From: a virus
IMG/VR virus record: IMGVR_UViG_3300047323_000138
Span: 1-64,000 of that record
Length of the DNA stretch: 64,000 bases
Reading direction: 5' to 3' (one strand)
How positions within the stretch are numbered: position 1 is the first letter of the stretch; each line of letters starts with the position of its first letter. A program made the position numbers and the translations under genes. Below, piece after piece: positions 30,443 through 45,211 of the stretch. The notes below the pieces were generated by a model. It had not been told where the DNA came from and made no database searches. It worked only from the letters and a program-made list of their open reading frames with translations.

Positions 30443-32950
30443 TTATGAAACATAAAGGTCCCCCAAAGTGCTTGTAAAAAAGTTCCAAGTAGCATTAGGG
30501 TTTGTTGATCCAATAGGTGTAGCCTTCAATTGTGAAGAGGCGTCAATAGACCATGTGAACGATGGGAATGTTCCACCAGCACCAGTTAGAAGCCCAACAG
30601 CACTGACAGTTACCAATTGAGGAGCAAGAGACGTGGCTCCCTTAGCTACCTGAAGGATGTAATGTGCTGTCTCAGAAGCATTTGCATCGACTTGTTTAAC
30701 TGTAATGAACAATACACCGGAAAAGTTGGTTGCTGTACCATCTTGTGAAACACAAGTACCAACCACGTTTCCGGTGGTTGTCAGGTTCTTGGAGATTGTC
30801 TGTGATGCAGTGTTGATCCTTTTAGATGAATAGTCCCTACGTGCTGTGCTGTTCTCGTCACGATTACCCACACCAGTGATAAAATCATAGGAAGTTCCCA
30901 GCGGGACGTTAACGGTGTTATATCTTGCTCTTGCTCCTTTGGAACCCTCAGAGTCAGTGGAGATAGATATCCCAGATGCTCCAGCAACGCCTGAGTGTAG
31001 ATAACAGCCCTCAACAATAGCCTTACCTTTGTTTACCCTAATACCAGACCCATTGAATTGGTATGCTGTTACGTCTTTTACAACAACATCGGGAAGAAGC
31101 TCAAGACCTCCGGTGGGGGAGATGTCACCGGTGACATCTGCCACGTTGTTCAGGAATGCACTAGTAATCATGTAGGCATTAGCTTTACTACCTACGGCAG
31201 AGCAGTTCTCAATGCTTGCATTTTGAGCACCGTATACCGAGAACGAATGTGATCCGGAGGTGGGGTTCCTCTCTATAATATCAACACCGCGCATGACAAC
31301 ATGCTCGTGGTAGCCGCCAGAGGCCGCCGCGATAATAGCCACACCTGTTGCGGAGCCTGCTGCTGGAACATCACCTACACTGAGGGCAGACGGAAGAACT
31401 TCAATATTACTGGCGATACCACACTTGTACAAACGATGAGTACCTGTGAAAGCACCAATAGTTTTGTAAGTACCTGTGATAGCATCTTCCTTGGTTTCAG
31501 CTACTTTAATAGTGTTAGCGTCAACTACAATAGCGAAATAGTAATTGGCCCGTCCAAAACCAGTAATCGCTGTGTTGTTCTGGCGGGAGTAAATTAAAGG
31601 GTAACCTGTAGTCAATCCGTGCGCTGTCAGGGTGAGAGCATTTGCGGAAGATGTGGTAAAATCGTATTTACCTAAAGTGTATGGCTCTATACCAATAACT
31701 TCACGCATAGTGTCGGTAGAGAACACCTGCATACTACCATGATCTACGTTCCCATATTGAAGGCCGAAGTTACCGCCTTTCTCACAGATAAGTTTTCCAT
31801 AGCAGTTAGTGGACGGTCTGTTATATGGATAAAAAGCACTAACGCCTACGGCTCCACCCAAAGCAGTGCCATCTGAAATTACTTTCAAATCTAGGAATAG
31901 ACCATCTGTATTATCTAGCAATATACCATGTTCAGCATGAGTACCAATACGAGCTACAGTGAATCCCTTCAAGGATATGTTCTTAAGTCTTGGTCCAGTG
32001 AATGGGCTTGCAAAGAACAGCTTACCAGAAGATGGAAACTTACAATAAATTGCAGGAGAATAGCTATCATCCCCCAAGATATCCATTGAAGACCACACAT
32101 GTATTGTATCAGTGATCATGTACTTCTTGTTTCTTTTAAGCTTGATTGGTAAGCCCGAAGCTTCTGCTGCAAGGAAGGCTGGCGTACAATCCGTGCCAAT
32201 CTGGGTATCTGGGTCATAGTCACCAACTGCACCAAACAATTCAATAGGCACACGAGAGTCACCAAGTATGGAGTAGATAGTGGCTGGTGTGCCATCAAGG
32301 TCAATACCGATCAAGGCCGCGCCTTTTAAATGATCGGAGTTGTTGGATAGATCTGCGATATCAGCTTTAGTAGAAAGAAGCCCTTCAGTATACACAGCAC
32401 TAGCTTCAGCGGCATTAGCCGAATCCAAAGAATCCTGTGCAGATGTGGAAGCTTCAGCAGCCTTAGTGGTGGATACACCCGCAGAAGTACTAGCAGATGA
32501 TGCACTATTAGCCGAGTTAGTTGCAGAGGTTTGACTGGCTGTAGCACTGTTTGCAGATTGAGTAGCTGACGTACTCGCATTCGTAGCACTTACAGCAGCA
32601 GCATTCTTACTAGCCAATGCAGCAGCAGCGTCAGCTGCCACTTGAGCTACAAGAGGGTCTGAATGAGCTGTTTGACCAATCATCAACAGAGCATTAATAG
32701 TTGTCTCTGTTGTATCATCTGTAATTTCAATATTACCAATGCTTGTAAATGCATGGTAATCATTTACGAATACACTTACTTTATACCAGCCATTAGGGAC
32801 ATCAATTTCATATGCTCCATCCACATTTGTCTTAAAATCTTTAGTGACAAACTGGAGAACATCTGGAGATGTGTTGTTAGCTGTAATCCGTACAAGTGAA
32901 TTTGAATATGGAACACCTGTAGGGGTTAGAAGAATACCTGAAAGAATCAT
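30443..32950 (-). CDS. Tailspike/fibre with beta-helix (pectate-lyase-like) depolymerase domain
   Basis: lambda-Stf-like N-terminal domain, Ala/Ser-rich stalk, FGAVGD..DCTPAF beta-helix start. Confidence 0.8.
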   Translation of the reverse strand: MILSGILLTPTGVPYSNSLVRITANNTSPDVLQFVTKDFKTNVDGAYEIDVPNGWYKVSVFVNDYHAFTSIGNIEITDDTTETTINALLMIGQTAHSDPLVAQVAADAAAALASKNAAAVSATNASTSATQSANSATASQTSATNSANSASSASTSAGVSTTKAAEASTSAQDSLDSANAAEASAVYTEGLLSTKADIADLSNNSDHLKGAALIGIDLDGTPATIYSILGDSRVPIELFGAVGDYDPDTQIGTDCTPAFLAAEASGLPIKLKRNKKYMITDTIHVWSSMDILGDDSYSPAIYCKFPSSGKLFFASPFTGPRLKNISLKGFTVARIGTHAEHGILLDNTDGLFLDLKVISDGTALGGAVGVSAFYPYNRPSTNCYGKLICEKGGNFGLQYGNVDHGSMQVFSTDTMREVIGIEPYTLGKYDFTTSSANALTLTAHGLTTGYPLIYSRQNNTAITGFGRANYYFAIVVDANTIKVAETKEDAITGTYKTIGAFTGTHRLYKCGIASNIEVLPSALSVGDVPAAGSATGVAIIAAASGGYHEHVVMRGVDIIERNPTSGSHSFSVYGAQNASIENCSAVGSKANAYMITSAFLNNVADVTGDISPTGGLELLPDVVVKDVTAYQFNGSGIRVNKGKAIVEGCYLHSGVAGASGISISTDSEGSKGARARYNTVNVPLGTSYDFITGVGNRDENSTARRDYSSKRINTASQTISKNLTTTGNVVGTCVSQDGTATNFSGVLFITVKQVDANASETAHYILQVAKGATSLAPQLVTVSAVGLLTGAGGTFPSFTWSIDASSQLKATPIGSTNPNATWNFFTSTLGDLYVS

Positions 32951-32983
32951 ATTGTCCCTACTGGAATAATTATTGTTTTAGAA

Positions 32984-33277
32984 TTCTTAAGCGAACTTAC
33001 AGGCAATGCCTTGCAATATTCATAATGAAGAAGAACGCTTAAGAAATGACCCTGTACTAAGCCTATACCGTAAGGAGAGGTACGTTACACGCTATCAAGG
33101 TCAGAAGACTAATTCACAGGAGAGGGAATGAATAGTCTTAATGCTGTCTGAGGAAGAGGAGAGAAAGACAGCTTTTGAAGATAATGCTTTATGTAGAATT
33201 TAAGTTCTTATCGCATTATCGGTGAAACTGGAATTAGTGCTCTGCTCACCCTCCCAACCGACATTCACTTTTGGAGG
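32984..33277 (-). ncRNA. Array of seven abutting hairpins, three with CUCUCCU loops
   Basis: Stems at 32984-33045, 33047-33103, 33105-33139, 33143-33172, 33180-33220, 33221-33250, 33250-33277; G-U pairs favour minus strand. Confidence 0.7.
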
Positions 33278-33279
33278 CT

Positions 33280-33326
33280 ACGCGACCTAATAAGGTTTCG
33301 ACTTATCACAAAGTCTCATCAGGCGT
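33280..33326 (-). ncRNA. Type I hammerhead ribozyme
   Basis: acgc CUGAUGA gacuu-ugugau-aaguc GAAA ccu-uauu-agg UC gcgu: complete core, three stems, GUC cleavage triplet. Confidence 0.92.
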
Positions 33327-33335
33327 GTTAAATAA

Positions 33336-33450
33336 GTGCGAATGCTGGATACCTACTTGCAGAGCGGTGGTATCGTACGCTCGTAAATTAATGCTGGTGT
33401 TGTTTATCTCGTCTTTATCACGAGGTGGCAGAATCCAGCAACTGCGCATT
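33336..33450 (-). ncRNA. Multi-branch structured RNA domain 5' of the hammerhead
   Basis: ugcuggau/auccagca closing stem enclosing cucgu/acgag and gagcg/cgcuc hairpins. Confidence 0.6.
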
Positions 33451-33452
33451 CT

Positions 33453-33713
33453 TTAACAAGTGATCTGAACAGGACTTTGAAAGTCTGTCAACTTCCACTG
33501 TTTGAAGTAGTCTGAAGGATACACCCGAGTAGGTATGTCACCAACCCCTACGAATACTTCTTTGTTACGATCAGGTGTACGCACTGGTGTGACCTTATCA
33601 AACACAAGCTTCAAATGATCTTTAATCATCAACCATTGGTTTTCAGAGATGGTGTCTGTGTCAGATAGTTCTACGAAGCCTTGAAGCCAGTATGTGAAGC
33701 TTTCGGAATTCAT
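33453..33713 (-). CDS. Conserved phage hypothetical protein
   Basis: F.YWLQGFVEL...QW.MIKDHL.LVF.KVTP motif. Confidence 0.7.
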   Translation of the reverse strand: MNSESFTYWLQGFVELSDTDTISENQWLMIKDHLKLVFDKVTPVRTPDRNKEVFVGVGDIPTRVYPSDYFKQWKLTDFQSPVQITC

Positions 33714-33715
33714 GG

Positions 33716-33850
33716 TTATTCTTCCATGCCAATTTCTTCACAACCAATATCAAGATATTCAAACAAAGCTTCTGGAGATTCAAAGTGAATAAGATTTTCA
33801 CCACGATCTGTTGCTTCCATTACTTCTAGAGTTTTAGCACTTGGAATCAT
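33716..33850 (-). CDS. 44-aa peptide resembling the C-terminal toxin-binding region of DinJ/RelB antitoxins (absent from ORF track)
   Basis: MIPSAKTLEVMEATDRGENLIHFESPEALFEYLDIGCEEIGMEE; AAGGA RBS; own promoter. Confidence 0.65.
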   Translation of the reverse strand: MIPSAKTLEVMEATDRGENLIHFESPEALFEYLDIGCEEIGMEE

Positions 33851-44593: not shown

Positions 44594-45211
44594 ATGAGAA
44601 CCAATGAATCGTTGTGGGCGGCAGAAGACATTGTAGACACTAAACATCTCCAATTCTTCAGTCTGTGTCAAGTAATGCGTGCCTTACATTATGACTATGT
44701 AGAATATCGGTCTTGTGCATCTCGATTTGAGAGCAAACACTATTCCAATAAAGGTCGTGAAGTAATCTCAATCTCTAAAGCTGTAAAATTATATAATGGT
44801 GACACAGCTAAATGTGTATTTGGTCGTCCTCCCAGTCACCTAACAATCTGGAGCTTTAACGACTATCAAGTTGCACAGGCTAAGGCTGCACGTATTGTCA
44901 AGAAAGTTAAGATCCAGCATTGTCGTGCTACAAATACTCTGATTATTCAAGACCACCGAGTAGAGTTCGTTCTTCCTTCATTCTCAAAGTTGTTTCTCAA
45001 TAATAAGTATTTAGGGTGACCCATGAATCGCTCAATCATATACGTTTGGTCATCAGGATTTTGGCTTTATGGTGTAGACTACCATCACGGTACGCATTCA
45101 GCTCTGGGTAAGTATCAAGAAGTTATTATTGGCGAGGGGTGGCATAAACAAGAGATTACTTTGATGGTGAATGATTTCATTGAAGAGAATCTATTGATGT
45201 GGGAAGATTGA
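44594..45211 (+). other. Two hypothetical ORFs (44594-45019, 45023-45211)
   Basis: RBS and ORF continuity. Confidence 0.65.

Follow-up and report, generated by a model that had tools for sequence, protein, structure and literature searches.

A predicted hammerhead ribozyme within a conserved double-pseudoknot RNA of phages

The stretch of DNA analysed here, in the following called the window, comprises positions 1 to 64,000 of the IMG/VR virus record IMGVR_UViG_3300047323_000138, which is a complete, 87,351-bp genome of an uncultured phage with direct terminal repeats. Between an ORF of 86 amino acids (33713-33453) and a tail-fibre ORF of 835 amino acids (32950-30443), the minus strand carries a type I hammerhead motif (33326-33280) and, around it, a conserved structured RNA element of 144 nt (33382-33239). 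Both ORFs have their coding strand in common with the hammerhead, and the element occurs in a single copy in the genome. Between the element and the tail-fibre gene, neither a terminator-like nor a promoter-like site was found on the same strand. A megablast search with 32900-33800 gave no match among phages or complete E. coli genomes.

Several other features of this intergenic region deserve mention. An ORF of 47 amino acids (33449-33306, minus strand) runs over the element's 5' half to end within the hammerhead. It was considered as a gene and rejected: it has no PHROG match, a 1-nt indel in the related locus L002 changes and shortens its end, and its conservation pattern is RNA-like. Thus, it is probably not a gene. 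A structured stretch of about 60 nt (33390-33452, minus strand) begins directly after the stop codon of the 86-aa ORF, with pairings such as UGCUGG/CCAGCA and CUCGU/ACGAG, and is common only to the closest relatives, L002 and L069. In the alignment with L069, homology sets in right behind this stop codon. The stretch accompanies the element in the L002/L069 lineage and lies outside the widely conserved unit. Between the element and the leader of the tail-fibre gene follows a variable slot (33046-33240 in the window, 2505-2850 in L002). In L002, the closest relative, this slot holds a tRNA-Pro, a tRNA-Leu and pyrimidine-loop hairpins of its own, while the window has some 195 nt of other hairpins there and lacks tRNAs throughout its 64 kb.

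Read on the minus strand, the window copy comprises all conserved core positions of a type I hammerhead (C3 U4 G5 A6 N7 G8 A9, G12 A13 A14, A15.1-U16.1 and an H17 that is not G). Stem I consists of the four base pairs ACGC/GCGU (33326-33323 with 33283-33280) and is open, which makes the topology type I. The core CUGAUGA (33322-33316) is followed by stem II (33315-33300; GACUU/AAGUC with the loop UGUGAU), by GAA (33299-33297; GAAA stands directly 3' of stem II) and by stem III (33296-33285), which has the four pairs ACCU/AGGU, including A15.1-U16.1, and the loop UAUU. C17 is 33284 and the base behind it, the G at position 1.1, is 33283, so that self-cleavage is predicted between 33284 and 33283 based on the hammerhead consensus and its established chemistry. 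Cleavage by a hammerhead gives the upstream piece a 2',3'-cyclic phosphate end and the downstream piece a 5'-OH end, and it is reversible. A previous sequence-only reading of the window had described a complete type I hammerhead with this cut on the sense strand of its neighbours. In these respects it was right: the sequence is exactly as it had been written out, the site is correctly placed according to the consensus, and the strand is that of both the 86-aa and the 835-aa ORF.

Over all 87,351 bp of the genome, a descriptor for the three hammerhead topologies found exactly this one site. When the genome was shuffled 400 times with its dinucleotides preserved, type I motifs with a minimum of 4/5/4 bp in their stems turned up not once, and 11 were found if the minimum was lowered to 3/3/3 bp. 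A search with the hammerhead models of Rfam, which had been suggested as a check, was not successful: at gathering score, Rfam 15 gave no match in the window nor in 20 related loci. In E-value mode, Hammerhead_3 came first, with a partial match of 22.7 bits (gathering score 48.5, E 0.013), and RAGATH-1-hammerhead (RF03152) second, with 14.6 bits (gathering score 56.3, E = 7). Such gathering scores are statistical thresholds of the existing models and not biochemical features. Since the window hammerhead scores below them, it is missed by the curated thresholds. Nearest-neighbour folding of the window copy did not recover the hammerhead (z = -1.5). A predicted 10-bp hairpin on the minus strand between 33327 and 33284, formed by GCCUGAUGAG with CUUAUUAGGU, would sequester the hammerhead core. 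This alternative hairpin exists only in the lineage of the window, L002 and L069, and it could be a folding trap or an artefact of the prediction; folding methods that are restricted to nested pairs are unable to represent a double-pseudoknot RNA.

To judge the motif by its relatives, homologues were collected via the neighbouring 86-aa protein, by exact-pattern scans of viral and metagenome contigs and by BLAST against GenBank phages. They were confirmed with two covariance models (R1 and R2), which match end to end in the window copy and in 27 other distinct loci; 26 of these 28 distinct sequences contain the hammerhead. C3, U4, G5, A6, G8, A9, G12, A13, A14, A15.1 and U16.1 are invariant in all 26. 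N7 is U in 24 and C in two members, and H17 is C in 11, A in eight and U in seven members, never G. At the level of sequence, this is what an active hammerhead would be expected to show, with an invariant core and variation confined to N7 and H17. Pairing is kept while the stems change: stem I, for instance, reads ACGC/GCGU, CUAAGA/UCUUAG, ACGA/UCGU or AUGC/GCAU, depending on the lineage. Within the hammerhead, 100% of the alignment cells of stem I, 91% of stem II and 96% of stem III are paired, and each stem has two to four pairs with compensatory changes. Covariation in related phages, which the sequence-only reading had named as a further check, is thus present in its stems, next to an unchanged core. 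For the element as a whole, 96.7% of the pair cells in the 28-sequence alignment are standard pairs, compared to 74% after shuffling and 36–42% if one strand is slid by one to three columns. Compensatory changes were found in 28 of 40 pairs and all seven helices are supported (a 10-sequence version of the alignment was analysed as well). Helices D and B, described below, were absent from the model used for the alignment, and consequently their support is not circular. As far as alignments can tell, it is this conservation and covariation in relatives, and not an Rfam score, that establishes the hammerhead.

Two details of stem II vary among the members. Its loop is of the GNRA type in 22 of 26, which suggests a docking contact, while no specific receptor could be identified from the sequence. 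In type I hammerheads, it is a tertiary contact of loop II with the stem I region that makes cleavage fast at physiological Mg2+. The pair 10.1-11.1, intact in the window copy, is mismatched in 11 of 26 members: L100, L089, L113, L114, L119 and L126, from the lambdoid, N4-like and Stephanstirmvirinae lineage, have U-U at this place and five further members A-A or C-A. G10.1 is generally considered to matter for the binding of metal, and copies with such a mismatch may be slower or differently arranged.

The hammerhead does not stand alone, as had been assumed before, and its flanks are conserved as strongly as the ribozyme itself. Together they form the 144-nt element, which begins with helix D (33348-33374, minus strand), formed by GAUACC (33374-33369) and GGUAUC (33353-33348). 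All cells of this helix are paired in the 28 sequences, and three of its six pairs show compensatory changes (e.g., UGUACC/GGUACA and GACACC/GGUGUC). The loop of helix D contains GCUCUGC (33365-33359), the 5' strand of helix A, which pairs with GCAGAGC (33245-33239) and closes the whole element, resulting in a first pseudoknot (D/A). Helix A is likewise paired in 100% of the cells, with compensatory changes in six of seven pairs. Just upstream of the hammerhead lies the 5' strand of helix C, GCAUUCGC (33345-33338), and its partner GUGAAUGU (33268-33261) is found inside the loop of hairpin B, which gives a second pseudoknot (C/B). Helix C is paired in 97% of the cells and compensated in six of eight pairs, with sequences that differ wholly between lineages. 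To judge from this alignment, it encloses the hammerhead and acts as a prolongation of the 4-bp stem I. Hairpin B itself (33250-33277) is built from CCUCC (33277-33273) and GGAGG (33254-33250), with 91% of its cells paired and compensatory changes in five of six pairs. This hairpin had formerly been counted as the first of a separate array of hairpins downstream of the ribozyme. However, it is helix B of the knot, and the sequence inside and after it pairs with strands upstream of the ribozyme (helices C and A).

Not only the helices are conserved. The joining strand AAGUA between the 5' strand of A and the 3' strand of D (33354-33358) consists of invariant alignment columns and is, together with GUGA (33249-33246) and UAG (33280-33278), among the most conserved unpaired stretches. 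AAGUA, GUGA, UAG and ACC are nearly invariant across lineages in which the helices have changed completely. A further candidate, a 5' hairpin GAGCG/CGCUC that might act as a switch by competing with helix A, was dropped in spite of two compensated changes, as it fails to track the changes of helix A in 05F01, Magnus, DP01 and the L007 and L088 lineages.

The genomic settings of the element are diverse. It is always intergenic and co-oriented with its neighbours, while the flanking genes differ in every lineage and neither a conserved partner gene nor a conserved neighbouring protein was found. First, tRNA genes on the same strand lie 1–16 nt from the element in L103, L007, L096, L114 and L116. 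In L103 it follows 16 nt after a tRNA-Tyr and precedes a tRNA-Ser by 7 nt. It stands 7 nt ahead of a row of four tRNAs in L007, 16 nt ahead of a tRNA-Pro in L096 (on the same contig as L002), 1 nt behind the last of ten tRNAs in Klebsiella phage 05F01 (L114) and 4 nt ahead of a tRNA-Ser in Klebsiella phage DP01. Second, in the lambdoid contigs L089, L094, L126 and L134 the element lies between the Q antiterminator gene and the lysis genes (holin), and in L089, L094 and L134 an intrinsic terminator follows. The 81 nt upstream of the element in L094 are 91% identical to positions 44635-44715 of lambda, between Q and S. This part of lambda presumably belongs to the pR' '6S' transcript, and the lambda record annotates only Q, orf-64 and S here. 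Third, the element directly precedes terS in L087, L092 and L095, and a tail-fibre gene in the window and L069. The cultured carriers include Escherichia phage VTCCBPA_322 (PP989839), the Klebsiella phages DP01 (PP824815), Magnus (MN045230) and 05F01 (LC483177) and Pseudomonas phage phita81A (PQ738200), and they belong to the Schitoviridae, the Ackermannviridae, the Stephanstirmvirinae and unclassified groups. In the GenBank records of the carriers, the element is either unannotated or covered by small hypothetical CDS calls. Examples of the latter are gene_188 of Klebsiella phage 05F01 (L114:2545-2640), which is called on the opposite strand atop the element, and CPT_Magnus_036 of Klebsiella phage Magnus (L117:2059-2157). 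Both are likely annotation artefacts.

The knot also exists without the ribozyme. While a first pattern scan for hammerhead-free knots gave chance matches only, a second one, based on helices D and A, led to two real ones: L134:3878-3982 (minus strand) and L130:799-903 (plus strand). In both, helices D, A, C and B are intact and a 10-nt loop (ACU-U/G-CGUAGU) takes the place of the hammerhead. The missing part reaches from the 5' strand of stem I through C17, whereas GCGUAG with the substrate strand is kept. In L134, the knot follows directly on the Q antiterminator gene of a lambdoid phage and has a terminator-like hairpin on either side. Based on these sequences, the ribozyme is to be seen as a module within a larger knot.

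Nor is the element as a whole a fixed part of its genomes. Comparison of L094 with public RNA runs revealed, in contigs of two biofilm RNA libraries, a related lambdoid late leader in which 54 other letters stand in place of the 169-nt cassette L094:2511-2679. The exchange begins at the 5' GAGCG and extends to about 28 nt beyond helix A, which marks the boundaries of the insertion. No reads of these runs fell on the element itself. Five complete relatives of about 90 kb that share the 86-aa gene are without the element, and among the 63 loci found via the 86-aa protein only three possess it. Consequently, the element is not linked to this gene. In none of the complete E. coli genomes was the lambdoid version found, and a pattern scan of genome contigs gave 0 matches, a result that says nothing on prophages in species-representative genomes. 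Since the element is absent from relatives and two knots lack the ribozyme, neither the knot nor the cut is essential.

What would the cut do? If the minus strand is transcribed as part of the late region, the stretch 33382-33239 would fold into an RNA of about 145 nt with two consecutive pseudoknots. In the first of these, the closing helix A would place its 5' strand in the loop of hairpin D. The second, made of helices C and B, would lie nested behind D and ahead of the 3' strand of A, and the hammerhead, with the substrate strand GCGU and then AG, would sit in the loop between C and B. Most likely, the hammerhead would then fold and cut between 33284 and 33283, with helix C as extension of the 4-bp stem I, on which the GNRA-type loop II would probably dock. 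The 5' piece would end at C17 and the 3' piece begin with GCGUAG. However, helices I, C and A, with 19 bp in total, run between the two products, and their separately calculated duplex energies sum up to about -23 kcal/mol here and to -25 kcal/mol in two other members. The cut would thus be a nick in a compact fold and not by itself a separation. The product would be a nicked knot in two pieces, with its halves kept paired by these three helices. The RNA upstream would end with the ribozyme body and the 5' half of the knot, closed by a 2',3'-cyclic phosphate, and the RNA downstream, made up of the hairpin array and probably the tail-fibre message, would start with a 5'-OH buried in the 3' half. 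From the sequence we infer that cleavage takes place in vivo and that the halves stay associated. As the products would remain paired and the reaction is reversible, cleavage in vivo may be incomplete. A nick would still be compatible with a chemical and structural protection of both new ends.

The knot, moreover, does not appear to serve the transcript of the window only. Copies bounded by tRNAs could be released as units of about 150 nt by the enzymes that process tRNAs, which argues for a function of the knot itself. These copies, and the knots that lack a hammerhead, point to a role of the unit beyond processing of this one transcript, to which the sequence-only reading had confined it. 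Taken together, we consider the following as the best explanation and would give it a chance of roughly three in four: the locus encodes a conserved, so far uncatalogued phage RNA of about 145 nt, which consists of two pseudoknots with a built-in hammerhead and would form, once nicked, a two-piece knot. In addition to the knot's own function, we infer as its effect a boundary between RNA units (mRNA, tRNAs, small RNA) that is capped both chemically and by structure, in phage regions of heavy transcription. Against this explanation speak the stem I of only four pairs, the Rfam scores below threshold and the preference of nearest-neighbour folding for a hairpin that sequesters the core. One might go further and speculate that the element represents a new class of non-coding RNA, widespread among phages and with its own function, in which the hammerhead ends (2',3'-cyclic phosphate and 5'-OH) are part of the function rather than the result of mere transcript trimming. 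This extension is tentative, and we lean slightly against it. If true, such a two-piece RNA could engage the RNA-repair, RNA-decay or tRNA-directed defence machinery of the host.

A simpler view, which is that of the sequence-only reading, takes the hammerhead as a processing site: it would separate the upstream mRNA from the hairpin RNA or the tail-fibre message, with the 5'-OH shielding the downstream RNA from RNase E, which depends on a 5'-monophosphate. In favour of this view, the ribozyme is genuine and has the orientation of its neighbours, and co-transcription with the tail-fibre gene is plausible since no terminator- or promoter-like site was found between the two on this strand. The positions at the head of the terS operon in L087, L092 and L095 and within the late leader of lambdoid phages fit as well, and processing of long phage transcripts has already been proposed for phage hammerheads (PMC3088659). 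However, the 19 bp that hold the products together stand against a separation, copies with tRNAs on both sides, such as that of L103, need no ribozyme for their release, and in L134 a knot without hammerhead occupies the same lambdoid position. Thus, the earlier interpretation is supported in part, being right on the motif and the position of the cut and too simple on its effect, and a mere processing site appears unlikely, although by no means negligible.

The hammerhead might also serve the maturation of the knot, or of the tRNAs or hairpin RNA that come after it, by providing an end that RNase P and RNase Z of the host cannot make. The strong association with tRNA arrays on the same strand would fit, and a precedent is given by HDV-like theta ribozymes that trim the 3' trailers of phage tRNAs (PMC10879173). 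Yet the cut falls about 45 nt upstream of the 3' end of the element and not at a tRNA boundary, the 3' piece alone would comprise only hairpin B and the single strands of helices C and A, and some knots have no hammerhead at all. We therefore regard such a device as improbable. It is even less probable that the knot senses or binds a small ligand or a protein. Such a partner might be a tRNA-directed factor, or one of RNA repair or defence, by which ends with a 2',3'-cyclic phosphate and a 5'-OH are recognised; the hammerhead would then be the output or activation step. The joiners AAGUA, GUGA, UAG and ACC, invariant despite changed helices, resemble what is seen in RNAs that bind ligands or proteins, and the element is located among phage tRNAs. 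However, no ligand, partner gene or conserved neighbouring protein was found, and this reading is speculation. That we are dealing with a chance resemblance or an inactive relic is very improbable: sub-threshold Rfam scores, a short stem I, a predicted alternative hairpin and the absence from close relatives are outweighed by 0 of 400 shuffles with an equal motif and by an invariant core with covarying stems over 26 homologues in unrelated phages.

For the nicked double knot, which remains our preferred explanation, the literature provides several points of reference. Perreault et al. described hammerheads of phages and prophages in 2011, together with pseudoknots by which they are stabilised (PMC3088659). 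HDV-like theta ribozymes adjoin the tRNAs of gut phages, in a study that mentions no hammerheads (PMC10879173), and a review from 2019 considered the role of bacterial and phage ribozymes as still open and in need of further work (PMC6765202). In full-text searches of the literature, we found no description of a hammerhead in this double pseudoknot, nor of the knot itself, and Rfam 15 holds no family for the double-pseudoknot element. Thus, a double-pseudoknot scaffold with a hammerhead appears to be new to the literature searched, and it is a candidate for a new family in catalogues of structured RNAs. Given natural versions with and without the ribozyme at the same locus, clear genomic settings and cultivable carriers, the role of a phage hammerhead becomes testable by phage genetics and mapping of RNA ends.

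Among known systems, the late leader of lambda (the pR' '6S RNA' between Q and S) shares its position between Q and the lysis genes with the element in L089, L094, L126 and L134. However, lambda itself lacks the element and the phage of the window is not lambdoid. The T4 RNAs rnaC and rnaD were considered as hammerhead-free homologues and rejected, as model R2, run with filters off, reached at most 2.4 bits over 70.8-71.3 kb of the T4 genome. With theta ribozymes, the hammerhead has in common that both are small ribozymes, known to be self-cleaving for theta and predicted to be so here, in phage tRNA arrays and on the tRNA strand. Yet theta ribozymes belong to another class and cut at the 3' trailer of a tRNA, whereas the cut predicted here lies inside the ribozyme's own scaffold, about 45 nt from the next gene. 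RAGATH-1 (RF03152) is similar in being of type I with extra conserved structure 5' of stem I, but this structure is a single upstream hairpin, with neither a double pseudoknot nor a closing helix. The closest likeness in the motif itself is to the type I hammerheads of bacteria, prophages and phages (PMC3088659; Rfam clan CL00010, e.g., RF00163). The core, the three-stem junction, the open stem I and the NUH triplet are identical, and like known phage hammerheads the element is intergenic, lies on the sense strand and presumably needs its periphery for activity at low Mg2+. The difference lies in this periphery: in known type I hammerheads it connects stems I and II through their loops or through a short pseudoknot, while here it is a double pseudoknot of 95 nt that exists without the ribozyme as well.
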